Both the position numbers and the translations under genes were made by a program. The notes below the pieces were generated by a model. It saw nothing but the letters and a program-made list of their open reading frames with translations. It had not been told where the DNA came from and searched no databases. This document shows positions 1 through 25,684 of a stretch of 25,684 nt of DNA, one piece after another (position 1 is the stretch's first letter; every line of letters starts with the position of its first letter). This DNA comes from a virus. The stretch lies in the UHGV virus genome UHGV-0106419; one strand, written 5' to 3'.

Positions 1-12
1 ACTAAACATATT

Positions 13-38
13 ATCTGCCCCGTTTTATCGGGGCAGAT
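13..38. terminator. Perfect 10-bp inverted repeat hairpin (ATCTGCCCCG / CGGGGCAGAT, 6-nt loop) just 3' of the ygaQ-like frame; possible bidirectional terminator
   Basis: Inverted repeat read directly at 13-22 and 29-38; lies immediately past the TAA at 50-52 of the minus-strand frame. The flanking U-run is weak. Confidence 0.35.
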
Positions 39-49
39 ATAACATTAAA

Positions 50-2302: not shown

Positions 2303-2861
2303 AATAAAGTTCCTCTAATGGTAGAGTAATATGATGTATACGGAAACATAAAAATGTTTAATTGTTGTGAAAGTAATTGCAAACAGATGTCCTACTTTTA
2401 TCCAATATTTATATGGAAAAGGATAATGCTTAAATCTGTTTTATTAATTATCGATGTGGTCTGGAGAGGCAACTGTCAAAAATCGCTCATACGAAACTAA
2501 TGATTAGCAGAATAAGATCTATGAAAGAATATATTGCTATACGAAGTTTATTTTTATGGAGTGAAAAGTAACAGATATCATAATGATGCGAAAACTCTTC
2601 AGCTAATGTAATAAAGTTATATTATTAGATACAAAATCATTACAAAGTATCATTGAATCGATGATAACTATAGATAGTGCTAATTATTAACATTTGCTTG
2701 TTGACTGCGAGTATCGACTTTGCGAATGGAGGCGGTGTCGGGTTTTATGTCGCGTGTAATCACGACCCAAGGTGAATGGGAACGCATAAAAATCTGTTAT
2801 TTACATCATATGATCATCATGTTTATTGCGTGGTTTATAAGTATTGTTATTGCACACTCAA

Positions 2862-2937
2862 GGCCCTTTAGCTCAGTGGTTAGAGCAGGCGACTCATAAT
2901 CGCTTGGTCGCTGGTTCAAGTCCAGCAAGGGCCACCA
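2862..2937 (+). tRNA. ileY: tRNA-Ile2 (anticodon CAU, lysidine-type), 76 nt with encoded CCA
   Basis: Cloverleaf readable: acceptor GGCCCTT/AAGGGCC, D-arm AGCTCAGTGGTTAGAGC, anticodon loop CTCATAA (CAT at 2895-2897), T-arm GGTTCAAGTCC. Sequence matches the E. coli ileX/ileY type as recalled, rather than initiator or elongator tRNA-Met. Confidence 0.85.
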
Positions 2938-3687
2938 AATCATTATTTACGTATCAGGAAGAGTTAAGGGTACAAGGGGTACTCGATGGCGGTCTATATT
3001 TCATGACTAACGCCATTTCAAGGAAGAAGTGCGGTGGGTGGTTTCGAATGAGGGCTGGTGTTTTGGTACGTGGCACGCCACTGCAATGTATTTATCCATC
3101 AGTACTCATTCAAAAGTACCTGGAAAAAATGCCTGCTATGCCAAGCGGGCAAATTGCTTACATGTGGAATTAAGTAATTAACGATAAAGCCAGAGTATTA
3201 TCATTTATTATACCCCTTCATTTAATCAGGTTAATTACTCAAATCACTGAACTATTCTCTGTTCGCTCACTGATGATAAGTGAGTACCACAACCAATGTA
3301 TGTAGAACAATGCCGTAGAGTAAGGATGAAATGTCTCTGCCACGCCTTAAACATCTACTACTGACCAGAACACCCGCCGCAGGCAGATGAGTTTTGTGAG
3401 CGTTACAGGAGCGTGGCTATGCTCATTAACCAACGCTATTGAGATATAAATTTCTAACACTTGAAAAACGATTTTCACTAATAAATTATAACGGTTTTTT
3501 TTATCATACAGCGAAATAACCTTTTGTTTATTAAATTTAACATTCCTGTGCTAATTTAATTAAAAGTTCCATGCGTAGCAAGTGAAGCAGTTAATGTCAG
3601 TAATTGTCTCAAATGAGCGTTTTTTTATAGTGACAAACAGTAATAACATTAAAAATAGCCATGTAGACATTAATTGAGGAATAGACA

Positions 3688-4170
3688 ATGTTAGTTAGTA
3701 AAAGCAACGGATTTAACGCTAGCGCAGTTTTGGGTAGTGGAAGTTATAATGAAAATAAATCTTCTAAACACATGGAGCTACTAGCTCATAGTATTTTAAA
3801 ATTAATTTGTAAGGAAGCTGCATCAGAGACGTATCGCGGTGCTCTTGAAACTTTACAAAAAATGATGTCTGAATGTATATATCAAGAAGGCAACGCCTTT
3901 GTCATTATGGGAGCTGGAGAACAATTAAAACGTATTAAATATGAAGTTGGTGAAAATAACTTAAAGGTATTCAACGTACACTTTAATAATAATCACGAGT
4001 TAGTTAGTTCTGGTGAGCCTGACGTAATATGTTTAAGCAAGCAGGTCTGGGAAAATCTTCTCATTAAACTAAAGCTGGAAAACAATGAAAATGTGTTTTC
4101 TGAAACTAAAAAATTATCGAATAAAAATAATGCCGATCAGTTTTTTGAATGCGCTAAAAGAAATGAATAG
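3688..4170 (+). CDS. Hypothetical protein (160 aa) in the slot occupied by ypjC in K-12
   Basis: Intact ORF in AT-rich DNA with no recognisable domain; assignment rests on synteny only. Confidence 0.4.
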   Translation: MLVSKSNGFNASAVLGSGSYNENKSSKHMELLAHSILKLICKEAASETYRGALETLQKMMSECIYQEGNAFVIMGAGEQLKRIKYEVGENNLKVFNVHFNNNHELVSSGEPDVICLSKQVWENLLIKLKLENNENVFSETKKLSNKNNADQFFECAKRNE

Positions 4171-4269
4171 AACCTTTTCGATAATATAAGAAAAAGTGAT
4201 TTTCATGTTGGTTTACTTAAGCCAAGTAGTACGCGTAGTGTTATTTTAGAAACGCCGCCAAATGTCTGT

Positions 4270-5061
4270 ATGGAATCACGTAATTCATATGAAAACAAAA
4301 TAGATGAGATTTCATCTTTGTCAGAGTCAAAGGAACACCCCATAGATATTCAAGAAAAAAAAGATGCGTTTGTGAATGAGTTCAAGGGGGTATTATTTGA
4401 TAAAAATACAAGGTCTTCAGAGCTTCTGTTTAATTTTTATGAGTGTTGCTATAAGTTTTTACCAAGAGCTCAGCCTCAAGATAAAATCGATAGCTATAAT
4501 TCAGCACTGCAAGCTTTTTCCATTTTTTGTTCATCTACGTTGACACATAATAATATAGGCTTTGATTTCAAATTATTTCCTGAAGTCAAGCTGTCTGGAG
4601 AACATCTTGAAACGGTATTCAAATACAAAAATGGCGATGATGTCCGGGAGATAGCCAAAATTAACATTACTCTCCAAAAAGAAGAGGGTGGTTTATATAA
4701 TTTACGTGGATTGGATTTTAAGGGGTGCTTCTTTTCTGGACAGAACTTCAGTAACTATGATATTCAATATGTGAACTGGGGAACGTCATTGTTTGATGTT
4801 GATACTCCGTGTATTTTTAATGCGCCTGCTTACAACAAGAGTAATGAAAAATCATTAAAACCTGTGAGCGAAAACGGTTTAAGTGGAGTATTGACTGATC
4901 GTAATAATAAAATAAAACTCATCACGGGCGTGGCACCATTCGATGATATTTTATTTATGGATGATGACTTTGATGATAGTTCCTCTGAGGATGATCCCGT
5001 TGAGAATAGTCCTGTTGTGACTAGTCCCGTTGTATCAAGTTCTAAAAGCAGTTTTCAATGA
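4270..5061 (+). CDS. ypjB: Uncharacterised protein YpjB-like (263 aa), acidic Ser/Asp-rich C-terminus
   Basis: Intact 263-aa ORF with ATG start; size and position between ileY and ypjA match K-12 ypjB as recalled. Confidence 0.55.
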   Translation: MESRNSYENKIDEISSLSESKEHPIDIQEKKDAFVNEFKGVLFDKNTRSSELLFNFYECCYKFLPRAQPQDKIDSYNSALQAFSIFCSSTLTHNNIGFDFKLFPEVKLSGEHLETVFKYKNGDDVREIAKINITLQKEEGGLYNLRGLDFKGCFFSGQNFSNYDIQYVNWGTSLFDVDTPCIFNAPAYNKSNEKSLKPVSENGLSGVLTDRNNKIKLITGVAPFDDILFMDDDFDDSSSEDDPVENSPVVTSPVVSSSKSSFQ

Positions 5062-5339
5062 TTAATAAATGGCAATTTTTACAAAGAGATAATAACGTAG
5101 ATTGAAACAATATGTATTATTGATTGAGTAAACGGGATTATTCTTCACACTACATCCATTTTAGTGTCACTACCAAAGAAAAAGGGGCTACGTTTTCATG
5201 TAACCCCTTGATTTATTTGGTGGGCTGGCAGTGACTGAATTGGTGCTGTAATTGGTTGAAATATTTCATCTAATGTCTGGTTCAACTTTCCTTAGCTGCC
5301 TGAAAGTTTTTTGATCTTACCCAGCAATAACAGCGTTAC

Positions 5340-5468
5340 GGTGCACCACGCCTGACTGAAGAACTGCGTGCTCAGGGTTACCACTTCAACGTAAAACCGT
5401 GGCAGGAGGTCCGGACTGAAAAAACTGGTCAGGACATCATCGGCAGGGAACGCACTGCTAGTCTGTAA
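5340..5468 (+). mobile_element. Decayed IS3-family transposase fragment
   Basis: Short frame translating to ...[17 protein letters not shown]..., which resembles the RRLTAEL-ARG--VNRKRV segment of IS3-family OrfB. No inverted repeats or intact ORF. Confidence 0.3.
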
Positions 5469-5469
5469 A

Positions 5470-5634
5470 CTGAACCGACTGGGGCGCAGTATGTGGCATC
5501 TTGTCGTGCTGTTGGAGGAGCTGTGCGAACGTGGTATTAACTTTCGTGCTCTGGCCCAATCTATATTTGCCCAACAATGGGGGGACGAATGCTGTAAAAG
5601 TAAAACAATCTGCGATCTCAAAGTTATTGTGTGA
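5470..5634 (+). pseudogene. pinH: Serine-invertase (Pin/Hin family) C-terminal fragment, pinH-like remnant
   Basis: Translation LNRLGRSMWHLVVLLEELCERGINFRALAQSIF aligns with the Pin motif [34 protein letters not shown]. No N-terminal catalytic domain is present. Confidence 0.55.
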
Positions 5635-5972
5635 TTTTTATGTGAGCAGAAGATATTCATCAGAAACGATTATGTAAATCATTTTATTTTGCCAACGGCC
5701 TCATTGTCGAAAGAAAAGAATACGCCCGTATTTCCTGAATGGATTGACTTTTTTATCCAACCACACTTCAGCGCACTGCGTTTAAAAAATGCCTCATTCT
5801 TATGCGGAATATCATCATTTCATCATGATGTCTTTGATGAGCGGTGAACACAATACACTTGCGCTGTCTCTTCAGGATGAATCCCCTGGTCTGGTGCCTG
5901 TGGGCTGATGTTGCAGCAAAGCTAAGGTCGCTTAAACGCTACTCAGTATTCACTTTTCAGAGGATGAAATTT

Positions 5973-8900
5973 ATGAACAGGACCAGTCCCTATTATTGTC
6001 GCCGCTCAGTACTTTCCTTATTGATATCTGCCTTGATATATGCCCCGCCCGGGATGGCTGCCTTCACTACTAATGTTATTGGTGTGGTAAACGATGAGAC
6101 TGTAGATGGCAACCAAAAAGTGGATGAACGAGGTACAACAAATAACACTCATATTATCAACCATGGCCAGCAGAATGTTCATGGCGGGGTATCTAATGGA
6201 AGTCTTATTGAATCTGGTGGATATCAAGATATAGGAAGTCATAACAATTTTGTGGGGCAGGCTAATAATACAACCATTAACGGTGGCAGACAGTCGATTC
6301 ATGACGGGGGTATTTCCACAGGTACGACAATCGAGAGTGGCAATCAGGACGTTTATAAAGGGGGTATCAGCAATGGAACGACAATTAAGGGCGGTGCTTC
6401 ACGCGTAGAGGGAGGGAGTGCGAATGGAATACTCATTGATGGTGGTAGCCAGATAGTAAAAGTTCAAGGGCATGCTGATGGTACAACGATAAATAAGTCT
6501 GGCTCTCAGGACGTAGTACAAGGAAGTCTGGCAACGAACACAACCATAAATGGTGGTCGACAGTATGTTGAACAGAGCACAGTAGAAACAACAACCATTA
6601 AAAATGGCGGTGAGCAAAGAGTATATGAGAGCCGTGCGCTGGACACGACGATTGAAGGCGGAACTCAGTCTCTGAATAGTAAGTCAACGGCAAAAAATAC
6701 GCATATCTATTCTGGTGGCACGCAAATTGTTGATAACACCAGCACCTCGGATGTTATTGAAGTTTATTCTGGTGGCGTGCTTGATGTTAGTGGTGGTACG
6801 GCAACAAATGTTACCCAGCACGATGGTGCAATTTTAAAAACTAACACTAACGGTACGACGGTGAGCGGTACGAATAGTGAAGGTGCATTCTCCATCCACA
6901 ATCACGTGGCAGACAATGTGTTGCTGGAAAACGGTGGTCATTTAGACATAAACGCATATGGTTCGGCAAACAAGACGATTATTAAAGATAAAGGAACAAT
7001 GTCAGTTTTAACCAATGCTAAAGCTGATGCGACCCGAATAGATAATGGCGGGGTTATGGATGTTGCAGGAAACGCGACAAATACCATAATTAATGGTGGC
7101 ACACAGAATATTAATAATTATGGCATAGCCACAGGCACCAATATCAACAGCGGAACGCAAAATATCAAAAGCGGCGGGAAAGCTGACACAACAATTATAT
7201 CCTCCGGGAGCCGGCAGGTTGTTGAGAAAGATGGTACGGCAATTGGCAGCAATATTAGCGCCGGAGGCTCGCTGATTGTCTATACCGGCGGTATTGCACA
7301 TGGGGTTAACCAGGAGACGGGCAGTGCTTTAGTTGCCAACACGGGTGCAGGGACTGATATCGAAGGATACAACAAGCTCTCTCACTTCACTATTACCGGA
7401 GGGGAGGCTAATTATGTTGTGCTGGAAAATACCGGCGAACTGACGGTAGTGGCTAAAACCTCGGCGAAAAATACTACCATTGATACTGGCGGTAAGCTGA
7501 TTGTCCAGAAGGAGGCTAAAACAGATAGCACCAGACTTAATAATGGCGGCGTTCTGGAGGTTCAGGACGGTGGTGAGGCTAAGCATGTTGAGCAACAATC
7601 CGGCGGCGCATTAATTGCTTCCACGACCTCCGGAACACTTATCGAAGGAACCAACAGTTATGGTGATGCTTTCTACATCAGGAATTCAGAAGCTAAAAAT
7701 GTAGTGCTGGAAAACGCTGGCTCATTAACAGTCGTCACTGGTTCCCGCGCAGTTGACACGATTATTAATGCCAACGGCAAAATGGATGTTTATGGAAAAG
7801 ATGTTGGCACTGTACTCAATAGTGCTGGCACCCAAACAATATATGCCAGTGCCACTTCTGATAAAGCAAATATCAAAGGTGGCAAGCAAACGGTATATGG
7901 TTTAGCCACTGAAGCAAATATCGAAAGTGGTGAACAAATTGTTGATGGTGGGTCAACAGAGAAAACACACATCAATGGTGGCACGCAAACCGTTCAGAAT
8001 TATGGTAAGGCAATCAATACCGATATCGTCTCTGGCCTACAACAAATTATGGCAAACGGGACAGCGGAAGGTTCCATTATTAATGGGGGTTCACAGGTAG
8101 TTAATGAGGGCGGTCTGGCTGAAAACTCGGTGCTTAATGACGGCGGCACACTCGATGTGCGGGAGAAAGGCAGCGCAACGGGGATACAGCAGAGTAGCCA
8201 GGGCGCTTTGGTTGCAACCACCAGGGCGACGCGGGTCACAGGAACACGCGCGGATGGCGTCGCGTTCAGCATCGAGCAGGGTGCGGCGAACAATATCCTG
8301 CTGGCAAATGGCGGCGTGTTAACCGTGGAGTCAGACACCTCTTCTGACAAAACACAGGTCAATATGGGCGGACGGGAGATCGTCAAAACAAAAGCCACTG
8401 CGACAGGCACGACGCTCACCGGCGGTGAACAAATTGTCGAGGGTGTGGCGAATGAGACAACAATTAACGACGGCGGAATACAAACAGTTTCAGCTAACGG
8501 AGAGGCAATAAAAACAAAGATCAATGAAGGCGGTACGCTGACAGTCAACGATAATGGCAAAGCGACAGATATCGTCCAGAACAGCGGTGCCGCTCTCCAG
8601 ACGAGCACGGCTAACGGTATTGAAATCAGCGGTACTCACCAGTACGGTACTTTTTCCATTTCCGGCAATTTAGCGACCAATATGTTGCTGGAAAATGGCG
8701 GTAATTTATTGGTATTAGCAGGTACCGAAGCTCGCGACTCCACGGTTGGCAAGGGTGGGGCAATGCAAAACCTGGGTCAGGACTCCGCCACAAAGGTTAA
8801 CTCTGGCGGGCAATATACCCTTGGGCGGTCAAAAGATGAGTTTCAGGCTCTGGCCCGGGCAGAAGATCTCCAGGTCGCTGGCGGTACGGCAATCGTCTAC

Positions 8901-10553
8901 GCAGGTACGCTGGCGGATGCATCGGTCAGTGGCGCGACAGGAAGCCTGTCGTTAATGACGCCACGGGATAATGTTACGCCAGTTAAACTCGAAGGGGCGG
9001 TCCGGATTACCGATAGCGCGATATTGACTCTGGGAAATGGCGTCGATACCACGCTTGCCGACCTGACGGCTGCCAGCCGGGGCAGTGTCTGGCTTAACAG
9101 CAATAATTCCTGTGCAGGTACCAGCAACTGCGAATATAGAGTAAACAGTTTGCTACTCAACGACGGTGATGTTTATTTGTCAGCACAAACAGCAGCGCCT
9201 GCCACAACTAACGGTATCTACAATACGCTGACAACCAATGAACTTTCCGGTAGCGGTAATTTCTACCTGCATACCAACGTTGCAGGCTCCCGGGGCGATC
9301 AACTGGTCGTCAACAACAACGCCACTGGTAATTTTAAAATCTTTGTTCAGGATACCGGCGTCAGCCCACAGTCTGACGACGCGATGACGCTGGTGAAAAC
9401 AGGGGGAGGGGATGCTTCGTTTACGCTGGGCAATACCGGCGGTTTCGTTGATCTTGGGACCTATGAGTATGTCCTGAAAAGTGACGGCAACAGCAACTGG
9501 AACCTGACCAATGATGTCAAACCCAACCCGGACCCCATCCCAAATCCAAAGCCAGACCCAAAACCCGATCCAAAGCCAGACCCAAATCCAAAACCAGACC
9601 CTACTCCCGATCCAACGCCGACACCCGTTCCGGAGAAACGCATTACGCCTTCTACGGCAGCCGTACTCAATATGGCAGCAACATTACCGTTGGTATTTGA
9701 TGCTGAGCTAAACAGTATTCGCGAGCGGTTGAACATAATGAAAGCGAGTCCACACAACAATAATGTCTGGGGGGCGACGTATAACACCCGTAATAATGTC
9801 ACCACCGATGCGGGTGCCGGGTTTGAGCAGACGCTGACCGGAATGACAGTGGGGATCGACAGCCGTAATGATATTCCTGAAGGAATTACCACGCTAGGCG
9901 CTTTTATGGGCTATTCCCATTCACATATCGGTTTTGATCGCGGAGGACATGGCAGTGTGGGCAGTTATTCTCTGGGCGGCTATGCCAGTTGGGAACATGA
10001 AAGTGGTTTCTATCTGGACGGTGTCGTGAAGCTGAACCGTTTTAAAAGTAACGTAGCAGGTAAAATGAGCAGCGGTGGAGCCGCCAATGGCAGTTACCAC
10101 AGCAACGGGCTGGGCGGTCACATTGAAACCGGGATGCGATTTACCGATGGTAACTGGAACCTGACGCCGTATGCATCGTTAACGGGGTTCACCGCTGATA
10201 ACCCCGAATATCATTTATCCAATGGCATGAAATCGAAATCAGTCGATACCCGCAGTATATATCGTGAACTGGGCGCAACGCTGAGTTACAACATGCGTCT
10301 GGGGAACGGTATGGAAGTTGAGCCGTGGCTGAAGGCGGCTGTGCGCAAAGAATTTGTCGATGATAACCGGGTGAAAGTGAATAGTGACGGTAATTTCGTC
10401 AATTATTTGTCGGGCAGACGTGGAATATACCAGGCAGGTATTAAAGCCTCATTCAGCAGTACGTTAAGCGGGCATCTTGGGGTGGGGTATAGCCATAGTG
10501 CCGGTGTGGAATCCCCGTGGAACGCGGTAGCTGGTGTGAACTGGTCGTTCTGA
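5973..10553 (+). CDS. ypjA: AIDA-I-type adhesin-like autotransporter (1526 aa): signal peptide, repetitive passenger domain, proline-rich linker, C-terminal beta-barrel
   Basis: Start chosen at MNRTSPYY... (ATG 5973), giving 1526 aa. Signal peptide SVLSLLISALIYAPPGMAA. Degenerate ~19-residue GG-x-Q-x-V repeats across the passenger domain. C-terminus ends ...AVAGVNWSF (aromatic terminal residue). The ORF-track start at 5844 is a GTG extension. Confidence 0.85.
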   Translation: MNRTSPYYCRRSVLSLLISALIYAPPGMAAFTTNVIGVVNDETVDGNQKVDERGTTNNTHIINHGQQNVHGGVSNGSLIESGGYQDIGSHNNFVGQANNTTINGGRQSIHDGGISTGTTIESGNQDVYKGGISNGTTIKGGASRVEGGSANGILIDGGSQIVKVQGHADGTTINKSGSQDVVQGSLATNTTINGGRQYVEQSTVETTTIKNGGEQRVYESRALDTTIEGGTQSLNSKSTAKNTHIYSGGTQIVDNTSTSDVIEVYSGGVLDVSGGTATNVTQHDGAILKTNTNGTTVSGTNSEGAFSIHNHVADNVLLENGGHLDINAYGSANKTIIKDKGTMSVLTNAKADATRIDNGGVMDVAGNATNTIINGGTQNINNYGIATGTNINSGTQNIKSGGKADTTIISSGSRQVVEKDGTAIGSNISAGGSLIVYTGGIAHGVNQETGSALVANTGAGTDIEGYNKLSHFTITGGEANYVVLENTGELTVVAKTSAKNTTIDTGGKLIVQKEAKTDSTRLNNGGVLEVQDGGEAKHVEQQSGGALIASTTSGTLIEGTNSYGDAFYIRNSEAKNVVLENAGSLTVVTGSRAVDTIINANGKMDVYGKDVGTVLNSAGTQTIYASATSDKANIKGGKQTVYGLATEANIESGEQIVDGGSTEKTHINGGTQTVQNYGKAINTDIVSGLQQIMANGTAEGSIINGGSQVVNEGGLAENSVLNDGGTLDVREKGSATGIQQSSQGALVATTRATRVTGTRADGVAFSIEQGAANNILLANGGVLTVESDTSSDKTQVNMGGREIVKTKATATGTTLTGGEQIVEGVANETTINDGGIQTVSANGEAIKTKINEGGTLTVNDNGKATDIVQNSGAALQTSTANGIEISGTHQYGTFSISGNLATNMLLENGGNLLVLAGTEARDSTVGKGGAMQNLGQDSATKVNSGGQYTLGRSKDEFQALARAEDLQVAGGTAIVYAGTLADASVSGATGSLSLMTPRDNVTPVKLEGAVRITDSAILTLGNGVDTTLADLTAASRGSVWLNSNNSCAGTSNCEYRVNSLLLNDGDVYLSAQTAAPATTNGIYNTLTTNELSGSGNFYLHTNVAGSRGDQLVVNNNATGNFKIFVQDTGVSPQSDDAMTLVKTGGGDASFTLGNTGGFVDLGTYEYVLKSDGNSNWNLTNDVKPNPDPIPNPKPDPKPDPKPDPNPKPDPTPDPTPTPVPEKRITPSTAAVLNMAATLPLVFDAELNSIRERLNIMKASPHNNNVWGATYNTRNNVTTDAGAGFEQTLTGMTVGIDSRNDIPEGITTLGAFMGYSHSHIGFDRGGHGSVGSYSLGGYASWEHESGFYLDGVVKLNRFKSNVAGKMSSGGAANGSYHSNGLGGHIETGMRFTDGNWNLTPYASLTGFTADNPEYHLSNGMKSKSVDTRSIYRELGATLSYNMRLGNGMEVEPWLKAAVRKEFVDDNRVKVNSDGNFVNYLSGRRGIYQAGIKASFSSTLSGHLGVGYSHSAGVESPWNAVAGVNWSF
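9518..9635 (+). repeat. Tandem repeat block encoding the P-N/K-P-D-P linker of the autotransporter
   Basis: Two near-identical 24-bp units (TCCAAAGCCAGACCCAAA...) at about 9546 and 9570, flanked by degenerate copies; translates to PNPDPIPNPKPDPKPDPKPDPNPKPDPTPDPTPTP. Confidence 0.6.
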
Positions 10554-10562
10554 CCATCAACG

Positions 10563-10590
10563 AAAAAGCCCACATCTGTGGGCTTTCATG
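10563..10590 (+). terminator. Putative rho-independent terminator downstream of ypjA
   Basis: Hairpin AAGCCCACA...TGTGGGCTT followed by TTT, 10 nt after the ypjA stop. Confidence 0.45.
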
Positions 10591-10713
10591 TTACCAGGAG
10601 CCGCGGCTCCTTTGCGTATCCTTTTATGTCTCCTCACCGTCTGGTCGGTGTTTTGCTGAGACTTCTAACTTCCTGTTTTTGTTGGTGTTGTCCTTACACC
10701 GTCCAATCATGAT

Positions 10714-10745
10714 TGGTGGGCTGGCGGGAGTTGAACCCGAGTCCG
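10714..10745 (-). other. tRNA-like 3'-end fragment (T-arm, acceptor and CCA only) resembling the 3' end of tmRNA/ssrA; putative prophage att core
   Basis: Minus strand reads CGGACTCGGGTTCAACTCCCGCCAGCCCACCA. Upstream sequence is AT-rich and not tRNA-like, so it is a partial copy. It lies between chromosomal ypjA and the prophage cargo and integrase. Confidence 0.5.
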
Positions 10746-10817
10746 TATTTTTATAATTAGCTGAAATAAAACGATTAATACTAACCATTTTATTCTGCGG
10801 ATCTTTTGCGGCTCCTT

Positions 10818-11717
10818 TTATGTCTGGATGTGGTCGTCAACACATCCTCTTTTAAATACAGGCGCTTTTACCTTAGTTGGATCATCTGTTTTAAAGATTT
10901 TCAATCGTTCACTGAAGAACATTACCTCAGATCCTTTGTACCGATCTTGAGCACTGTAGTTTATTCCATATACTAATGATGATGTCTTATACATAGCTTG
11001 GATCTCAGGAGTGTTATCGTAAGAAACAATCCAAGGTGTTTTAATATTATTCTGTACGACTTTTGCAACCCTAACATGATCATCATGATTATAATGGTTG
11101 ATATATAAACCTTTACCTTTTATGTAATAAGGTGGATCCAAATATGTTAATGAGTTTTGTGGCAATTGAATAACTATTTTTTTAATGAAATCAATTGCAT
11201 CCATGTTATATAAATCTATTCTGTGACGATTTTCTGATATTTTATGGATTCGAGAAATCAAATCACTCTTATTATAGCGAGCGTCAAGCTTCCATTTCCC
11301 TTCTTGATTTTTACCGCCAATTACTCCACCTTTTAATATTCCAGAACGATTTGTTCTATTGAGAAAAAAGGTTGAGAAACCAATTGTTAAAAGATCATGG
11401 TCTTTAGGATTATTAATTATATCTTTCTGCCTAAACCATTCATCCATTGTAACTTCAGTTCTTTCAATTAAAGAACATAATTGATCTGCATGATTTAATA
11501 CACTGTGCCAAAAAGCATAAACAGAAATATTAATATCATTAAGGATGATTTTTTCAGCTGCATTTAGATGTAACAGTTTCAATGCTAAACCAGCACCCCC
11601 AGCATATGGTTCGGCATAATGTATAGGCGAAAGATTATTTTCTTCAATAAGCCGAAGCATGAAATTTGCAAGCTTGCCTTTACCGCCAGGATAGCGAAGT
11701 GGGGTGTTAAAACGCAT
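10818..11717 (-). CDS. D12-class (Dam-family) N6-adenine DNA methyltransferase, 299 aa
   Basis: Motif I YAEPYAGGAG near the N-terminus and motif IV DPPYY at about residue 185, the alpha-class order. AGAGG RBS 7 nt upstream of the ATG. Confidence 0.8.
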   Translation of the reverse strand: MRFNTPLRYPGGKGKLANFMLRLIEENNLSPIHYAEPYAGGAGLALKLLHLNAAEKIILNDINISVYAFWHSVLNHADQLCSLIERTEVTMDEWFRQKDIINNPKDHDLLTIGFSTFFLNRTNRSGILKGGVIGGKNQEGKWKLDARYNKSDLISRIHKISENRHRIDLYNMDAIDFIKKIVIQLPQNSLTYLDPPYYIKGKGLYINHYNHDDHVRVAKVVQNNIKTPWIVSYDNTPEIQAMYKTSSLVYGINYSAQDRYKGSEVMFFSERLKIFKTDDPTKVKAPVFKRGCVDDHIQT

Positions 11718-13588: not shown

Positions 13589-14755
13589 TTATATTGTTAT
13601 CTTCTTCAAGCTTGTTTGTCCATCATATTCCTTCAGATATGAGCCATAGTGCCTGAAAAGCATCTCAGGCCCTTTATGCCCCATTTGAGCTGCAAGCCAA
13701 AACAGGTTTGCTCCCCGGCTGATATGTCTGGTGGCGAATGTATGCCTGGTTTGATATGGGTTTCTGTAACGAATACCTGCTTTTCGCAATGTTGGCACCC
13801 ATGCTTTTTTCCTAATTGCATCAGCACTTGCCCAGGGTTTATTGGTCTTTGGATCTTCAAAGACAGTAGCATCCTTCATGAATGTAAATGGCTTCTGGTT
13901 TATCAACGCCAACATTGCTTCTTCAGTCAGTTCAACTTTACGGGTACCGGCTTTTGTCTTTGTTCCTTTGATAACTCCGACAACACTTGCGCTCTGAACA
14001 TGGGCTGTTTTTCCAACAAAGTCGATATCATGCCATCGTAGGGCACATAATTCAGAACTACGCAGGCCTGTATGTATGGCGAACCGGAACAGATTTTCCC
14101 ATTGTTTGTTTCCGGCTGCTGCTAGTAATGCATCAACTTCTGCTGGTGATAGCGGATCAACCACATAGCTGCTTTCTGCTTCTGACTTATCACTTTGGTA
14201 GCGCGAAGCAGTTACCAACGATACGGGGTTAATTTGAAGTACCCCATCGGTTACGGCTTCATCAAGTGCTGACCGCAGGAAAGATAACTGGTTGCGAATT
14301 GTTTTTAAGGTCGTTTTCTGGCTTTGAATCCACGCTTTCAGGATTGCTGGTGTTAATTCACTTGCAGGGCAAATGTGGAGTGAGGCTAACGCACTACGGC
14401 ATTTTTTATAACCACCAATCGTAGATGGTGAAAGTTTTCTCGTTTCGCAGATTTCAAGGTATTCGTCCAGGTACATTTTTACCGTTTTGCCTGCAGCAGC
14501 ATTACCAAAAATTTTCAAACGAGCAGAACGGGGAAAATATTCCGCATAAATGAATGTTCCCCTTTCGATCTTATTATGAATTTCGCCGAGTGTGCGCTCG
14601 GCGTATTTAATGTTCTTTGGTGTTACTTCCAGATTGGAAAGAGGCTCACGACATTTAACGCCTTTGTAGGTGAAAGTTATATTGATCGTTTCGCCCTGGC
14701 GGTGTTTCCTGATTGTTACGCCGCGCGGTAGTTTGAGCAGTTTTGTCTGGCCCAT
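13589..14755 (-). CDS. Phage integrase (tyrosine recombinase), 388 aa
   Basis: C-terminal catalytic region ...RHTFATRHISRGANLFWLAAQMGHKGPEMLFRHYGSY (R/H/Y residues) and N-terminal arm-binding-type domain. Overlaps the upstream xis-like ORF by 40 nt. Confidence 0.85.
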   Translation of the reverse strand: MGQTKLLKLPRGVTIRKHRQGETINITFTYKGVKCREPLSNLEVTPKNIKYAERTLGEIHNKIERGTFIYAEYFPRSARLKIFGNAAAGKTVKMYLDEYLEICETRKLSPSTIGGYKKCRSALASLHICPASELTPAILKAWIQSQKTTLKTIRNQLSFLRSALDEAVTDGVLQINPVSLVTASRYQSDKSEAESSYVVDPLSPAEVDALLAAAGNKQWENLFRFAIHTGLRSSELCALRWHDIDFVGKTAHVQSASVVGVIKGTKTKAGTRKVELTEEAMLALINQKPFTFMKDATVFEDPKTNKPWASADAIRKKAWVPTLRKAGIRYRNPYQTRHTFATRHISRGANLFWLAAQMGHKGPEMLFRHYGSYLKEYDGQTSLKKITI

Positions 14756-14934
14756 TTTGCAACCTCACTAAGATCAATCCACCTCTCCTTAACGCCTTCA
14801 ACCTTTAAAACCTGAACACCTTCACGCCAAACACCGCGCTGTACACGTTTGTTTATTGCTTCAGGAGTTTCGCCAGTTTCTTTGCAATAAGTTGAGATAG
14901 GAACACAATCGAGGTTCAGCATATGTTTCTCCAC
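14716..14934 (-). CDS. Putative excisionase/Xis-like small DNA-binding protein (72 aa)
   Basis: Position immediately upstream of and overlapping int; small basic protein. Family assignment is from position and size only. Confidence 0.45.
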   Translation of the reverse strand: MEKHMLNLDCVPISTYCKETGETPEAINKRVQRGVWREGVQVLKVEGVKERWIDLSEVAKWARQNCSNYRAA

Positions 14935-16083: not shown

Positions 16084-16564
16084 TTTGTTCTCCACGTTAT
16101 ATGCGCTGCACCGCGCTGAATTCGGGTAAAAGGAAGCCCTCACCGTCCGGCGATTATTGAGTCAATTACATTTCCATAAATGCCCCCGTAGGGGCGGTTA
16201 GTTTCTCCACAAAACAGAGAAGAACACCTGCGGTGGCAGCCGCCCGGATGGATTGGGTTATGAGCCCGTCGTCCGATGATGCTCTTCTCTGTTTTGTAAA
16301 AAGGACGGTACCAGCCGGAAGCAAGGGTACAAGCTGGTACCGCCAAGACAACACACAGCATAAAGTTGTGGTGCCGGGTGCCTCCCGGTGCCTGGCGAAG
16401 GTTGTACACCAGACGGGTGGGTATCCACAGAAGGTCGACTGTCAGCCTTAACCTTAACCCGCGTGCGCTGAGCCGCATTCACCACAACGCTAAGGATTCT
16501 CTCTGGTTGAAAATACTTAGCTGTTATGTGCCTGCTTTTAGCCACATCAGGCGAGGTGGACCTG

Positions 16565-16600
16565 GTTATTCCCCAACAACAAGGATTCGGTATAATCTGG
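16565..16600 (+). promoter_or_regulatory. Candidate promoter for the micro-ORF/SieB-like operon (consensus -10 TATAAT at 16591-16596)
   Basis: Exact TATAAT about 33 nt upstream of the first micro-ORF; the -35 is poor (TTATTC). Confidence 0.3.
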
Positions 16601-16628
16601 ATATCCCAACAACAGGTAGGAAGGAAAT

Positions 16629-16712
16629 ATGTACGTAGATAGCAATGAAAAATTTCATGTTCCGGTAAATCAGAGACCAGCACCGATCCCTGAGCCGAAA
16701 CCTGAAATGTAA
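16629..16712 (+). CDS. Micro-ORF A (27 aa): MYVDSNEKFHVPVNQRPAPIPEPKPEM
   Basis: ATG preceded by AGGAAGGA RBS; shares the H-x-P...RP-x-P-x-PEPKP motif with micro-ORFs B and C; ends 10 nt before the SieB-like start. Confidence 0.4.
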   Translation: MYVDSNEKFHVPVNQRPAPIPEPKPEM

Positions 16713-16722
16713 GGGAATAGAG

Positions 16723-17202
16723 ATGACTCGAGACGATCTAGCATTCGATATTCATTATTCTTTCTTTCTTGAGAAAATGAATTACACCCTTTTAAATCGG
16801 ATAGACAAGAGCATAACTCTTGTTCTCATTGTCTTGGGCTTTTCTGTTTTTGCGCCATATAGCAATATGTTTATTTTTGGCGCATCTGTAGCTATTTTGT
16901 CGGTGCTTCAATTGGTATACCAATTTGGGCAGGAAGCTGGCTTATCAAAGGAACAGATGCGACAGTATAAAAGGTTGATTGTTGAGTTTTCCTCCCTTTC
17001 TGATGACGAACTACGCACTCGGTTTTTAAAGGTTCAAGACGCTGATAGTAATCCATGGAGATCTTTACAAGATGCTGCGTTCAAACGGACCTGTATTGCG
17101 CTGGGACGTGTTGATGAGTCAGAAATATCATTCATGCATAGCGTTATCGCATGGTTTGCTGGAGATTTGCCTCGGTCAAAAAGGTGTAATAATGACAAAT
17201 AG
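16723..17202 (+). CDS. SieB-like small membrane protein (159 aa), putative superinfection exclusion
   Basis: Two adjacent hydrophobic segments (ITLVLIVLGFSVFAPY, MFIFGASVAILSVLQLVY). Encoded opposite to the pL operon next to the cI-like repressor, as sieB is in lambda and Rac. AGGGA RBS. Confidence 0.45.
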   Translation: MTRDDLAFDIHYSFFLEKMNYTLLNRIDKSITLVLIVLGFSVFAPYSNMFIFGASVAILSVLQLVYQFGQEAGLSKEQMRQYKRLIVEFSSLSDDELRTRFLKVQDADSNPWRSLQDAAFKRTCIALGRVDESEISFMHSVIAWFAGDLPRSKRCNNDK

Positions 17203-17308
17203 AATTCCCATAATCCCTAACCATGTACCTCCAAAGCCCAGACCACCATCACCAAAGTCACACAGGCTTTATGAGTATGAATTAATAATGGATTCTATAT
17301 TGAGATGA
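17192..17308 (+). CDS. Micro-ORF B (38 aa): MTNRIPIIPNHVPPKPRPPSPKSHRLYEYELIMDSILR
   Basis: Overlaps the SieB-like stop in another frame; shares the proline-rich motif. Confidence 0.35.
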   Translation: MTNRIPIIPNHVPPKPRPPSPKSHRLYEYELIMDSILR

Positions 17309-17312
17309 CCAA

Positions 17313-17402
17313 ATGAATGCATTTATATATACATGGAAAGAGGATCATATACCCTTAAAACCTCGTCCTTCACCGCCAGAACCGAAGCCAAAATCCCGTT
17401 AA
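17313..17402 (+). CDS. Micro-ORF C (29 aa): MNAFIYTWKEDHIPLKPRPSPPEPKPKSR
   Basis: Starts 5 nt after micro-ORF B; shares the motif HIPLKPRPSPPEPKPK. Confidence 0.35.
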   Translation: MNAFIYTWKEDHIPLKPRPSPPEPKPKSR

Positions 17403-17537
17403 GTGTTGGGGATCTCCAGATTGTTAAAGAGCGAAGCGTCCTATAGGGCGCTTTTTTGTTGCTAACGAATCATCCTGGACTTCATATGCCCCAGGCGGCT
17501 ACTTCGTGGGCGTCCTACCTGTTCGTTGTTTCTCTTG

Positions 17538-17570
17538 GGTACATTATGTATCTCAAAGGTACATTGTCAA
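17538..17570 (-). promoter_or_regulatory. pL-like promoter with overlapping operator half-sites (GGTACA / TGTACC)
   Basis: On the minus strand: -35 TTGACA (17565-17570), 16-bp spacer, -10 CATAAT (17543-17548); GGTACA half-sites at 17538 and 17559. Confidence 0.4.
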
Positions 17571-17573
17571 GTA

Positions 17574-17597
17574 TAAAAAAACCTGCCGAAGCAGGTT
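17574..17597 (-). terminator. Rho-independent terminator downstream of the cI-like gene
   Basis: Minus strand reads AACCTGC-TTCG-GCAGGTT followed by TTTTTTT; 13 nt after the repressor stop. Confidence 0.55.
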
Positions 17598-17609
17598 CAT
17601 AAACATTGA

Positions 17610-18284
17610 TTAGGCTTTGATTTTGTATCTTCTTGGTTTTCCTGAGAAAATCACTGTACCAATTATAGAGCAATTACCGTTGATCTTAATGTAAGGTTCA
17701 GGCCAGTTTGGGTTTAATGCTTTGAGGTAACGCTGTGTTCCATCTTCTATCAACCGCTTGAAGGTGGTTTCGCCTGTATCGTGCATCAATGCAATAACGT
17801 CGTCACCGTGGCAGGCAGGGACTTCAGGATCAACAAAAATCATGTCTCCCGGGCGGTACTCATCAATCATTGAATCACCAATCACCCGCAAGATATAAGT
17901 CATTTCGCCACAGGGTACAGGGCAGGGGTAAGTTTCTGCTGTGCTCAAATCAACCTCAGAATAGCCAACTTCTTTCCATGCTCCGGCCTGTACCCATGAT
18001 ATGACAGGGACTAACGTTATTTGTTTGTTAGTGATTGAAACATCAGGTTTTTTTGTGATGTTCGTGGTCTGGTGTTCTTGATCAAGCCATCCGACAGGCA
18101 GGTCGAAACATTTTTCGATGTGCCGCGCCATGCTGTCACCGATATTTTTAGTAGCACCATCTCCCATAAACCTGCTGGTCTGGGTTGGCTCGCGATCAAT
18201 CATAGTGGCAAAGGAAGAATTCCCGCCAACACCATCTCTCAGTTTTCTGGCGTTAGACCGCCGGATGTCATGGATTGTTTTCAT
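17610..18284 (-). CDS. cI-like prophage repressor (N-terminal HTH, C-terminal S24 LexA-like peptidase domain), 224 aa
   Basis: S24 motifs GDSM (Ser nucleophile) and downstream Lys (FKRL); divergent from the cro-like gene; operator repeats on both sides. Confidence 0.8.
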   Translation of the reverse strand: MKTIHDIRRSNARKLRDGVGGNSSFATMIDREPTQTSRFMGDGATKNIGDSMARHIEKCFDLPVGWLDQEHQTTNITKKPDVSITNKQITLVPVISWVQAGAWKEVGYSEVDLSTAETYPCPVPCGEMTYILRVIGDSMIDEYRPGDMIFVDPEVPACHGDDVIALMHDTGETTFKRLIEDGTQRYLKALNPNWPEPYIKINGNCSIIGTVIFSGKPRRYKIKA

Positions 18285-18298
18285 AACGAAATTAAAAC

Positions 18299-18369
18299 CC
18301 TTGTACCGTTAAGGTACAAGTATCTTGAAGGTTCATTTTAATCATGTAATATGTACACCGGAGGTACAT
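18299..18369. promoter_or_regulatory. OR-like operator/promoter region between the cI-like and cro-like genes
   Basis: Palindromes CTTGTACC-GTTAA-GGTACAAG (18299-18319) and ATGTAC-ACCGGAG-GTACAT (18351-18369); candidate PR -35 TTGAAG (18325-18330) and -10 TAATAT (18347-18352), 16-bp spacer. Confidence 0.5.
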
Positions 18370-18374
18370 ATTGT

Positions 18375-18575
18375 ATGAAAGCGTATTGGGACTCTTTAAC
18401 CAAAGAACAGCAGGGCGAGTTGGCCGGAAAAGTTGGCTCAACACCTGGCTACTTACGGCTGGTTTTCAATGGCTATAAAAAAGCCAGTTTTGTGCTGGCT
18501 AAAAAACTTGAGCAATGCACGTCAGGTGCAATTACGAAATCTGACTTAAGACCGGATATCTATCCGAAAGATTAA
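18375..18575 (+). CDS. Cro-like / YdaS-family small DNA-binding protein (66 aa)
   Basis: Start at MKAYWDS (ATG 18375) with GGAGG RBS; small HTH-type protein divergent from the repressor; resembles YdaS-type proteins as recalled. Confidence 0.55.
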   Translation: MKAYWDSLTKEQQGELAGKVGSTPGYLRLVFNGYKKASFVLAKKLEQCTSGAITKSDLRPDIYPKD

Positions 18576-18606
18576 CAGAACACCTTCAATTTTTAACCAC
18601 AGAACG

Positions 18607-19170
18607 ATGAGGCTAACCGTGGGTAAGTATCACTGGAAAGTAGAAAAACAGCCTGAGTGGTACGTGAAAGCTGTCAGAAAAACTATCGCAGCGTTGCCGG
18701 GTGGTTACGCTGAAGCAGCTGACTGGCTGGATGTAACAGAGAACGCATTATTTAACCGCCTTCGTGCCGATGGCGATCAGATTTTCCCGCTGGGATGGGC
18801 AATGGTTTTACAGCGCGCGGCTGGCACTCACTACATTGCGGATGCTGTCGCACAGTCTGCTGGTGGGGTGTTCGTATCGCTTCCTGAAATTGAGGAAGTA
18901 GAGAACGCCGATATAAACCAGCGCCTGCTGGAAGTCATCGAACAGATCGGGAATTACTCAAAGCAGATTCGTTCGGCAATCGAAGATGGGGTCGTGGAGC
19001 CACACGAGCAGACAGCAATTAATGATGAGTTGTATCTGTCAATTTCGAAGCTCCAGGAACATGCAGCACTGGTCTACAAAATCTTTTGCGCTCCAGAAAA
19101 GAGTGACGCCCGCGAGTGTGCAGCTCCGGGCGTCGTGGCGTTTTGTGTCTGTGGAGAAACTAACGCATGA
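18607..19170 (+). CDS. YdaT-like / CII-like regulatory protein (187 aa)
   Basis: Position immediately after the cro-like gene, as in Rac ydaS-ydaT; family assignment from memory. An alternative GTG start at 18619 has a better RBS. Confidence 0.45.
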   Translation: MRLTVGKYHWKVEKQPEWYVKAVRKTIAALPGGYAEAADWLDVTENALFNRLRADGDQIFPLGWAMVLQRAAGTHYIADAVAQSAGGVFVSLPEIEEVENADINQRLLEVIEQIGNYSKQIRSAIEDGVVEPHEQTAINDELYLSISKLQEHAALVYKIFCAPEKSDARECAAPGVVAFCVCGETNA

Positions 19171-20003
19171 ACAGTTTAACGGCAAATAACCGTTTGTCGC
19201 AACAGCTGGTGGTCAGTGTCGCTGAACACCTGTTGTTACGGCATGAATGCAGATTACCAAATCTCCTGGCTGTAAGTAACCACAGAGAACTTTACCTGAC
19301 TGTGGGGGGCGAGTTGTGCAGGAACTTAACCGCTGGTTTCGTGACGGAAGAGGACTTTATGTTCATGTTATTCGTTGGGAGCCAGAAACACAGCGCGTTA
19401 TCTATCTTCGCAAAGACTACCCGCATGAGTGCTTTAGTCCTTTGTGGAAATTCAGGCGTGATTTTGTTGAGTGTGAAGGACCACCAGCACATTGATTCTG
19501 CCATTCCGGGACGTTACACTGTTCAGGCACCTTATAAAGCGGGTGCCGGGATTGGCGTCCTGGAATTGATCAAGGCGATATATGACGCGCCAGCGTCTTT
19601 TTTATCGTCCGCATTTGCTCACATCAAAGTTATGGTGGGCTGGGCGGGGGCATCGAAAGATGCGCCGGTTTCCTTGATCACCGGTTACGCCAACCCCGTT
19701 CAGTTCACCACCAGCGAAATTGGCGTTTCCGGTGGTGGAAGTATTTCACCGATCAAGGAGGCTGCCATCATGGCTACTGTCCCAGCCCTCACTCGTCTGA
19801 ATGATGAAGACTTACATAAACTCAGTTATGTAACAACTGCACTACGTGCTCTGCGCAAGGTAACTCTTTCGGATCCGCAGGCACATCAGGTTCTGGTAGA
19901 AACCCTTCTTAACTTGCAAGCTGAACGTATTCGTCTGGCGGATAAGGCTAATTTTCATATTCACCGTCTCCTGAATATCAGCGGAGGGCATCGTCATGCT
20001 TAA
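19167..20003 (+). CDS. Hypothetical phage protein (278 aa) in the replication module
   Basis: ATGA start/stop overlap with the upstream gene; no motif recognised. Confidence 0.5.
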   Translation: MNSLTANNRLSQQLVVSVAEHLLLRHECRLPNLLAVSNHRELYLTVGGELCRNLTAGFVTEEDFMFMLFVGSQKHSALSIFAKTTRMSALVLCGNSGVILLSVKDHQHIDSAIPGRYTVQAPYKAGAGIGVLELIKAIYDAPASFLSSAFAHIKVMVGWAGASKDAPVSLITGYANPVQFTTSEIGVSGGGSISPIKEAAIMATVPALTRLNDEDLHKLSYVTTALRALRKVTLSDPQAHQVLVETLLNLQAERIRLADKANFHIHRLLNISGGHRHA

Positions 20004-20232
20004 TCCGTTGATCCTCAATATTTGCCGTTTGCTTCAGCGTAAAAAAACATCAATTCCTACAGTTGGGCAGTGGTACACCACGCCTGCAGGGCATGTTCTA
20101 CGTGTTAGCCTGGTTGACCGTGAATGCCAGAAGGTGATTTGTGAACCGCTGGGCCGTAATTACCGCGTCAGTATGCCGCTTATAGCCTTTCGCTCCGGAA
20201 AAAACATGAAGCATCTCGGAGGTGCAGCATGA
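19996..20232 (+). CDS. Hypothetical small phage protein (78 aa)
   Basis: 8-nt overlap with the upstream gene and ATGA overlap with the downstream gene. Confidence 0.4.
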   Translation: MLNPLILNICRLLQRKKTSIPTVGQWYTTPAGHVLRVSLVDRECQKVICEPLGRNYRVSMPLIAFRSGKNMKHLGGAA

Positions 20233-25634: not shown

Positions 25635-25684
25635 GTTTCTGGTGATGCTGCCAACTTACTGATTTAGTGTATGATGGTGTTTTT

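Follow-up and report, generated by a model that had tools for sequence, protein, structure and literature searches.

A probable attR junction of a lambdoid prophage in the 3' end of ssrA, with a displaced ssrA end that lacks T357 as in Escherichia coli K-12

Several elements are known to occupy the 3' end of ssrA, the gene of the transfer-messenger RNA (tmRNA). In Escherichia coli K-12, the cryptic prophage CP4-57 is annotated as running from inside ssrA to psaA (b4645), a 14-bp pseudogene (CCGCCAGCCCACCA) that sits 160 bp before ypjA. Excision of CP4-57 deletes T357 of ssrA, and the tmRNA without U357 has no tagging activity, so that ribosome rescue shifts to ArfA (PMC10107115). The same "phage regulatory switch" logic is described for CP4So, an ssrA prophage of Shewanella oneidensis whose excision deletes one ssrA nucleotide (cited in PMC10107115); CP4So is an unrelated element in an unrelated host, and it is likened here by its description in that citing source. 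The phage PhiNP (OR565852) of Citrobacter rodentium integrates in the 25-bp ssrA 3' end (GGTTCAACTCCCGCCAGCTCCACCA), as found by junction sequencing both in C. rodentium and in several derivatives of E. coli K-12, and its integration regenerates an intact ssrA (PMC6456863). In the free Escherichia phage LLS (PQ299149), a "tmRNA pseudogene"/attP is annotated, which consists of a P arm, the ssrA 3' end (with an intact CAGCTCCACCA), a trailer of ~150 bp and a terminator. Here, we describe positions 10554-10830 of the virus genome UHGV-0106419 (25,684 nucleotides, the whole stretch being called the window), which are very probably the attR (P-O-B') junction of a lambdoid prophage of the PhiNP/LLS type, integrated in the ssrA 3' end of a K-12-like E. 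coli.

The displaced ssrA end and its two arms

The minus strand at 10745..10714 reads CGGACTCGGGTTCAACTCCCGCCAGCCCACCA and is a 32-nt copy of the ssrA 3' end. A preliminary description of this DNA had given the same letters on the same strand, and had interpreted them as an att-type partial duplicate, near-identical to the tmRNA 3' end with two or three mismatches and without a tRNA body upstream. Alignment to the E. coli ssrA end (...CGGACGCGGGTTCAACTCCCGCCAGCTCCACCA in JJ1886, A2 and K-12) revealed exactly two differences, and the other elements of that interpretation agree with the results below. One difference is a G to T change at window position 10740. The other is the loss of one T between 10720 and 10719; this T is T357 of ssrA, the U of a G:U pair in the acceptor stem.

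ARAGORN reported a single tRNA in the window (2862-2937) and no tmRNA or tRNA body upstream of the fragment, where the sequence is an AT-rich phage arm. The Rfam tmRNA model scored 12.2 bits against a gathering score of 47, matched with its 3' part alone and was flagged as 5'-truncated. This match and a second one below threshold at the fragment (Tymo_tRNA-like, 22.5 bits, gathering score 40) are due to the T-arm plus ACCA. A complete tRNA-like domain, a paired acceptor stem and an mRNA-like domain with a tag frame, as in a functional tmRNA or tRNA gene, are absent; a tmRNA/tRNA-like gene or small RNA at the fragment was ruled out by the negative ARAGORN result and the sub-threshold Rfam scores. 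Three features of an attR in a tRNA or tmRNA gene are present: a displaced 3' fragment lies without gene body at the edge of the element, one flank is collinear with the unoccupied site while the other is element DNA, and a cognate tyrosine integrase, of a family that uses ssrA, is encoded nearby.

The host side of the junction was assigned by comparison with K-12 and with empty sites. Positions 1-10735 of the window are 99.925% identical to K-12 MG1655 over 10,736 nt. The K-12 psaA and the next 160 bp, up to ypjA, are identical to window 10727..10554, with the missing T included, and the fragment is thus located where CP4-57 ends in K-12, as the preliminary description had it. Among 5,426 complete E. 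coli genomes, ~2,250 have an empty site at which ssrA runs uninterrupted into trailer and host flank (1,474 in the ypjA context and 775 in the glaH context). Some of these genomes are 100% identical to a synthetic site composed of ssrA with T357, the trailer of K-12 and the window, and ypjA. The comparison with empty-site strains, which had been proposed as a check, hence came out in favour of the early interpretation, and the window trailer is native host flank because empty-site genomes join ssrA directly to it. Folded as RNA, the trailer forms several hairpins and a 10-bp terminator stem that is followed by a U-run.

The CP4-57 attR at psaA and the junction described here occupy one and the same chromosomal place, with the ssrA island on one side and ypjA on the other; their host arms are identical, and both have lost T357. 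They differ in their occupant, which is the P4-like CP4-57 in K-12 and a lambdoid phage of ~45 kb here, and in the length of ssrA homology at the junction (14 nt in psaA vs. 32 nt). The integrase gene intA lies directly after ssrA in CP4-57, whereas int is at the ssrA-distal end here. Moreover, the P' arm of CP4-57 is unrelated to the host trailer, while the trailer of the lambdoid phage is homologous to that of the host.

The phage side was assigned from relatives. The contiguous order ypjA, fragment and methyltransferase gene was present in three complete E. coli genomes (A2, ETEC4088 and 2017-02-2CC), and in numerous ST131 genomes, JJ1886 among them, this phage end borders on glaH-side DNA, with ypjA and ileY absent. 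A2, JJ1886 and 2017-02-2CC share the phage arm of the window (100% identity over 300 nt), and each of the three has an intact annotated ssrA at the opposite, tail-fibre end of this lambdoid prophage, 43-46 kb from the junction. The presence of ssrA at that distance supports a lambdoid phage at the ssrA site with its integrase at the ssrA-distal end; this arrangement, in which a phage other than CP4-57 occupies the site, had also been put forward in the preliminary description. The window integrase shares 93% identity with that of PhiNP and 86% with that of LLS. PhiNP has the same order of int, AAA ATPase, methyltransferase-like DNA (unannotated in its record) and att, and its P' trailer carries the same pair of 11-mers as the window; it differs in its host, in its otherwise different mosaic genome and in having no missing-T scar. 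LLS differs in the gene between int and att, in its degenerate P-arm 11-mers and in being a virion attP, not a prophage junction.

The att homology extends over ~190 bp and not only over the 32 nt, as similarity to the ssrA locus continues for ~150 bp past the CCA. Past the CCA, the attL of JJ1886, A2 and 2017-02-2CC continues with ATCATGATTGGACGG... and then has the palindrome GGAGCCGCGGCTCC as well as a terminator hairpin; this stretch is ~90% identical to window 10713..10563. Since LLS and PhiNP show such an att layout, phages of this type carry a replacement ssrA 3' end together with a trailer of ~150 bp and a terminator. The phage trailer copies are diverged homologues of the host trailer (84-92% identity) with their own terminators. 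The PhiNP publication describes the 25-bp att identity alone, and neither the trailer homology of ~150 bp nor the arm repeats. The trailer as a purely phage-derived fossil in the host was found unsupported, given the ~2,250 contiguous empty sites and host alleles that follow the chromosomal context. The trailer may originally have been captured by the phage or by the host.

Some further features of the trailers were observed. In the attR of 20AR1039 (L013), the host-side arm is 96.7% identical to the phage P' arm at the attL of JJ1886, and an unrelated hypothetical gene comes next; this suggests that replacement of the B' arm by a P' arm happens, or there may be a tandem array at the site. Between the window trailer (10635-10700) and those of LLS (L006), PhiNP (L008) and LMessi (L011), two hairpins keep their pairing through two-sided changes (CACCGaccagaCGGTG to CACTGaccagaCAGTG in LMessi, GGTGT...ACACC to GTGCT...AGCAC in LLS). 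Just after the CCA, the motif GGACnG is repeated 11 nt apart. Judged from sequence, the hairpins and GGACnG may be ssrA 3'-processing structures or sites for proteins (Xis, IHF).

Crossover, the missing T357 and excision

The origin of the two differences from ssrA was traced by comparing the arms of six E. coli genomes (the window, 2017-02-2CC, A2, ETEC4088, 20AR1039 and JJ1886). Upstream of the core, their phage arms agree at 100% over 300 nt, and the T at GGACT is common to all six; the G to T change at 10740 consequently belongs to the phage P arm, which is an imperfect ssrA copy. The first variable position among the six is T357, absent in the window and 2017-02-2CC and present in the other four. 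Beyond T357 the sequence tracks the host allele, with trailers 87-100% identical to that of the window and ypjA or glaH flanks. As variation starts at T357 and then follows the host allele, the missing T very probably belongs to the host side. A phage-borne origin of this difference was ruled out, identical phage arms being found both with the T and without it.

The attL and attR of JJ1886 differ right after CCACCA and at GGAC[G/T], which places the crossover within CGGGTTCAACTCCCGCCAGCTCCACCA (27 nt). The P-arm homology to ssrA starts just 5' of the T-stem in every family member, and the T-stem halves, as read from the sequence, form an inverted repeat around the 7-nt T-loop. By analogy with T-loop-type tRNA integrases, we infer that strand exchange takes place in the T-loop region, 5' of T357. 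The integrase would exchange strands in the T-stem/T-loop, phage DNA would complete an intact ssrA ~45 kb away, outside the window, and the original ssrA 3' end of the host would be displaced with its trailer to the attR junction.

Replacement of CP4-57 by the phage would be the simplest history of this site. A K-12-like ancestor would have carried CP4-57, its displaced ssrA end would have lost T357, and the lambdoid phage would then have taken the place of CP4-57. Replacement could have occurred by tandem integration into ssrA followed by CP4-57 excision, or by lysogenisation of a CP4-57-cured cell without T357, in which ssrA would thereby have been repaired. Both routes yield the observed hybrid of phage P arm, T-arm, missing-T acceptor and K-12 trailer. 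PhiNP lysogeny of K-12 implies a tandem array of phage and CP4-57, and tandem-like arrays were found in the Kp4866-6 record (a phage junction followed by a CP4-57-type P' arm) and in phi467 (a junction followed by intA).

The complete arrangement is seen in 2017-02-2CC, with T357 at attL and its absence at attR, as in the window; the T357 in attL is known from this sister genome only, while the missing T in attR is seen in the window itself. If the crossover lies 5' of T357 and the prophage is competent, precise excision would probably rebuild an ssrA without T357 and give an inactive tmRNA. The predicted attP consists of the P arm, CGGACTCGGGTTCAACTCCCGCCAGCTCCACCA and the phage trailer, and the predicted attB of an ssrA ending in ...GGACGCGGGTTCAACTCCCGCCAGC-CCACCA followed by the K-12 trailer. 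With a crossover 5' of T357, CAGCCCACCA would be expected in the ssrA of cured cells. On balance, we lean towards the missing-T357 scar as a host-side allele that was made beside CP4-57 and is handed on when elements are exchanged at ssrA. Here it would have passed to an unrelated, apparently complete lambdoid prophage, which would now be the sole source of a working tmRNA 3' end and terminator, and whose excision would switch off trans-translation.

Losses in the displaced acceptor were also seen beside P4-like elements. At the right junctions of the P4-like (CP4-57-type) elements sampled, 1-8 nt were lost right after CCGCCAGC in 15 out of 15 cases (loci L016, L020, L024, L029, L032, L037, L048, L062, L068, L083, L087, L091, L096, L101 and L109; no phylogenetic control). 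The losses include the missing T, CCAATCATG, CAATCATG, AATCATG, CATGATTGG and others, and the hosts include Citrobacter, Atlantibacter and Mangrovibacter. Recurrent decay, selection or a property of the integrase could account for them. The acceptor was intact in 18 of 23 viral-contig junctions of the T-arm type.

The assignment of the junction has to be weighed against an older origin of the fragment, which might be a decayed ssrA relic (the psaA scar) unrelated to the present prophage, with the real right end elsewhere. The 14 nt on the host side and the missing T are indeed identical to the K-12 psaA, which is older than this phage. However, psaA comprises just 14 nt, and the phage arm brings with it another 18 nt homologous to ssrA (10745..10728) as well as the G to T change. 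The phage arm is 100% identical in six genomes and ends exactly at this point, the same junction in JJ1886 adjoins glaH-side DNA with an intact T357, and the attP sites of LLS and PhiNP share the layout. A relic is thus highly improbable. The same cannot be said so firmly of the alternatives for the crossover and for the missing T, and several observations weigh against the history and the outcome of excision proposed above. The window stops at 25684, inside the prophage, so that its own attL and ssrA are outside the window and attL is deduced from relatives. Direct comparison confines the crossover only to the 27 nt, T357 and CCACCA included; its placement 5' of T357 comes from the start of the P-arm homology and from the analogy with T-loop-type integrases. 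If the missing T came through CP4-57 excision, its position on the host side reflects the crossover of CP4-57 and not that of this phage. The missing-T allele also occurs beside other elements, where it flanks at least four unrelated P arms, and in other genera, and it may have arisen recurrently.

A crossover 3' of T357, or a prophage unable to excise, would change the outcome, since ssrA would then survive loss of the prophage undamaged, and the fragment without the T would be an inert scar. The 27-nt interval includes T357 and CCACCA, the identity block reported for PhiNP is the whole 25 bp (PMC6456863), and the window contains a part of the prophage only, all of which is compatible with this. 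The P-arm homology nevertheless begins just 5' of the T-stem, the usual start of attP homology relative to the crossover; identical phage arms are paired with T or with the missing T according to the host allele; and the T-stem halves make up the kind of inverted repeat that core-type sites on either side of a 7-nt overlap should form. We therefore consider a 3' crossover or a defective prophage rather unlikely, and prefer strand exchange 5' of T357. The missing T might also have arisen independently in this lineage, or have been brought by the phage, without inheritance from an ancestor bearing CP4-57. Missing-T or shorter acceptors are found at several types of element and in Citrobacter and Atlantibacter, and such deletions recur. 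The 160-bp host arm, by contrast, is 100% identical to K-12 and the 10.7-kb flank 99.925% identical, and the same phage arm occurs with an intact T357 in A2, ETEC4088, 20AR1039 and JJ1886. Experimental PhiNP lysogeny of K-12 creates exactly the tandem intermediate that replacement of CP4-57 requires (PMC6456863). An independent loss is accordingly a minor possibility, and inheritance from a CP4-57-bearing ancestor is preferred.

Direct repeats on the two arms

Imperfect direct repeats on either side of the fragment, the second overlapping the stop codon of the methyltransferase gene, had been pointed out in the preliminary description, and both observations proved correct. Positions 10601-10631 and 10795-10825, 194 bp apart, match at 26 of 31 positions, and the methyltransferase open reading frame (ORF) ends inside the second repeat (Table 1). 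There are three local repeats of such quality in the window and none in 60 first-order Markov simulated windows, which ruled out chance. A target-site duplication was also ruled out, one copy being located in conserved free-phage DNA and the other in the native host trailer. Each repeat consists of two 11-mers in tandem (AAAGGANNCGC), and each arm has one such pair. The 11-mer consensus was found nowhere else in the window, the pattern being derived from these four copies. The copy on the host arm is explained by the homology of the host trailer with the phage P' arm.

The arms of related elements were analysed by an unbiased search for the best direct match between P and P', with offsets counted from a T-loop anchor. 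The best match was located at ~-81/+114 in the window (19/22), in PhiNP (17/22) and in the reconstructed attP (18/22). In LMessi (Int 68% identical), the offsets were the same and the motif was a different one (ATATGCACTTAAAATGCACTTG vs. ATATGCACGTGAAATGCACGTG, 19/22). Two controls in which the P' arm came from another element showed no P/P' match. The P-arm pair follows int directly, with no methyltransferase gene between them, in Kp4866-6 and in the IMG/VR locus L043, and it is therefore not a by-product of the methyltransferase gene.

Next to these relatives, we considered 61 junctions from two collection scans, namely those that do not follow an ssrA body. Only L043 had the P-arm pair, and no other locus of this set has an integrase of 89% identity immediately upstream; among these junctions, the pair was confined to PhiNP-type integrases. 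In L094, where the integrase is 97% identical and cargo separates int from att, the pair is reduced to a degenerate remnant. Loci with 66-69% identical integrases had mostly an ATGCAC-type pair, and the 56 junctions without a related integrase had other repeats. Exact copies of a 28-nt motif of the P' arm are present in 19 species-representative genomes, which range from Escherichia to Erwinia and Mixta, and in over 120 viral contigs. Of the 78 loci with a recognised T-arm, 67 have the motif at a fixed distance of 114 nt from it, whether a complete tmRNA gene or a fragment comes before.

An arm-DNA-binding domain is present at the N terminus of the integrase (PF12167, Arm-DNA-bind_2, residues 10-77, E = 5.5e-23), and the motif stands on both arms at kept positions and changes with the integrase subfamily. 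Because of this domain, of the kept offsets and of the change of motif with integrase type, the 11-mer pairs are most likely arm-type binding sites for the N-terminal domain of the integrase. The arrangement resembles lambda attP, where a heterobivalent tyrosine integrase with an N-terminal arm-binding domain uses short tandem sites on both arms, tens of bp from the core (P1/P2 and P'1-P'3). It differs from lambda in the arm domain, which is PF12167 here, in the site sequence and in having the core inside an RNA gene, and the sites described here are candidates by sequence.

The repeats could instead be non-functional, either a chance similarity or a passive fossil of a duplicated trailer in the phage arm. 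The B' copy is simply part of the native trailer in empty sites, and the arm-site role is deduced from sequence. The P-arm copy of LLS, which is degenerate (15/22) and not significant alone, also counts against a role as arm sites. On the other hand, no simulated window out of 60 had such a repeat, and the P-arm pair is kept at the same offset despite different P arms or neighbouring genes (the methyltransferase gene in the window, int in Kp4866-6 and L043, and likewise PhiNP). In the subgroup with 66-69% identical integrases, another pair takes these offsets on both arms, and the integrase has its arm-binding domain. Repeats without function are thus improbable, and candidate arm-type sites are the reading that we retain.

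Phage genes beside the junction and meaning of the locus

The features of the junction and of the adjoining genes are listed in Table 1. The identity of ileY as tRNA-Ile(CAU) relies on lysidine modification.

Table 1. Coordinates of the attR junction, its candidate sites and the flanking genes in the window
Feature	Position	Strand	Remarks
Displaced ssrA 3'-end fragment, core (O) of attR	10714..10745	-	T-stem, T-loop, acceptor 3' strand, CCA
CGGGTTCAACTCCCGCCAGC, likeliest strand-exchange region (T-stem/T-loop)	10720..10739	-	5' bound, phage-specific T; 3' bound, first host-variable position
Phage P arm of attR	10746..10830	-	AT-rich spacer and arm-site pair; 100% identity among six E. coli genomes whose host flanks differ
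P-arm 11-mer pair, AAAGGAGCCGC + AAAAGATCCGC	10797..10818	-	First base is the last base of the methyltransferase stop codon; candidate Int sites
Host arm B', native ssrA trailer	10554..10713	-	Hairpins, palindrome and terminator; identical to K-12 downstream of psaA
B'-arm 11-mer pair, AAAGGATACGC + AAAGGAGCCGC	10603..10624	-	Homologous to P'-arm sites of the phage family
Palindrome GGAGCCGCGGCTCC in host trailer	10597-10610	-	Within B' arm
Terminator hairpin	10563-10586	-	Back-to-back, common to ssrA trailer and ypjA
ypjA, host gene flanking the site	5844..10553	+	As in K-12
ileY, tRNA-Ile(CAU)	2862-2937	+	ARAGORN label tRNA-Met(cat); identity by position and K-12 annotation
D12-class DNA adenine methyltransferase (MTase)	10818-11717	-	Cargo between int and P-arm sites
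AAA_15/AAA_21 ATPase, 594 aa	11797-13581	-	Cargo between int and P-arm sites
Tyrosine integrase	13589..14755	-	Arm-DNA-bind_2 N-terminal domain (PF12167), SAM-like domain, PF00589
Small ORF overlapping int start, excisionase position	14716..14934	-	Equivalents annotated xis in PhiNP and LLS

The small ORF that overlaps the start of int had no Pfam match and is a putative xis by position and by the annotation of its homologues. The MTase matched the PADLOC model PD-Lambda-5_B over its full length (E = 5e-124), while the best PADLOC matches of the ATPase were generic models of PtuA/AriA/GajA-type ATPases (E ~ 1e-20). A complete PD-lambda-5 system was ruled out, the MTase alone giving a match. 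The cargo may be a methylase-linked defence module with a partner other than that of PD-lambda-5. Further right, on the minus strand, lambdoid early genes follow, among them those for a Peptidase_S24 repressor, a CII-like product and a DnaD/HTH replication protein.

The prophage is a mosaic. In its int-cargo module it shares 98% identity over 5.4 kb with the A2 and JJ1886 prophages, but no nucleotide match to them was found at 16196-18590 and 19578-20064, in the immunity region (repressor/cro) and a part of the early genes. At 19527-19715 on the plus strand, inside ORF 19167-20003 (Ash-family domain), Rfam matched isrK (64 bits) and C4 antisense RNA (82 bits) back to back; the pair looks like a P1/P7-type antisense immunity module in a lambdoid early region. 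At 20490-20650 on the plus strand, inside ORF 20229-21047 (HTH_36/DnaD_N initiator), there is an iteron-like array with a period of 21-24 nt and ~2.5 copies, and a further 12-nt repeat is present at 20619-20648. This array probably marks the origin of the phage, placed as lambda ori is in gene O.

All components of the junction are of already known kinds. The prophage boundary is placed precisely, and every base of the original observation is accounted for by known biology. For annotation, the window contains an attR, a host trailer, a phage arm and a cargo insertion point. The candidate arm sites provide a testable map of attP; if they are confirmed as such, the 11-mer pairs would be the first defined arm-type sites of the PF12167 family of ssrA-targeting integrases, a family potentially useful as an ssrA-targeting integration tool.

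Mildly new is the pairing of the defective displaced ssrA end of K-12 with a different, lambdoid phage. If this phage excises as predicted, tmRNA would be inactivated and ribosome rescue would shift to ArfA, extending the CP4-57 switch to inducible lambdoid phages. Decayed displaced ends would then make any ssrA-resident element costly to lose, and the locus suggests that host-side ssrA scars persist through element turnover.

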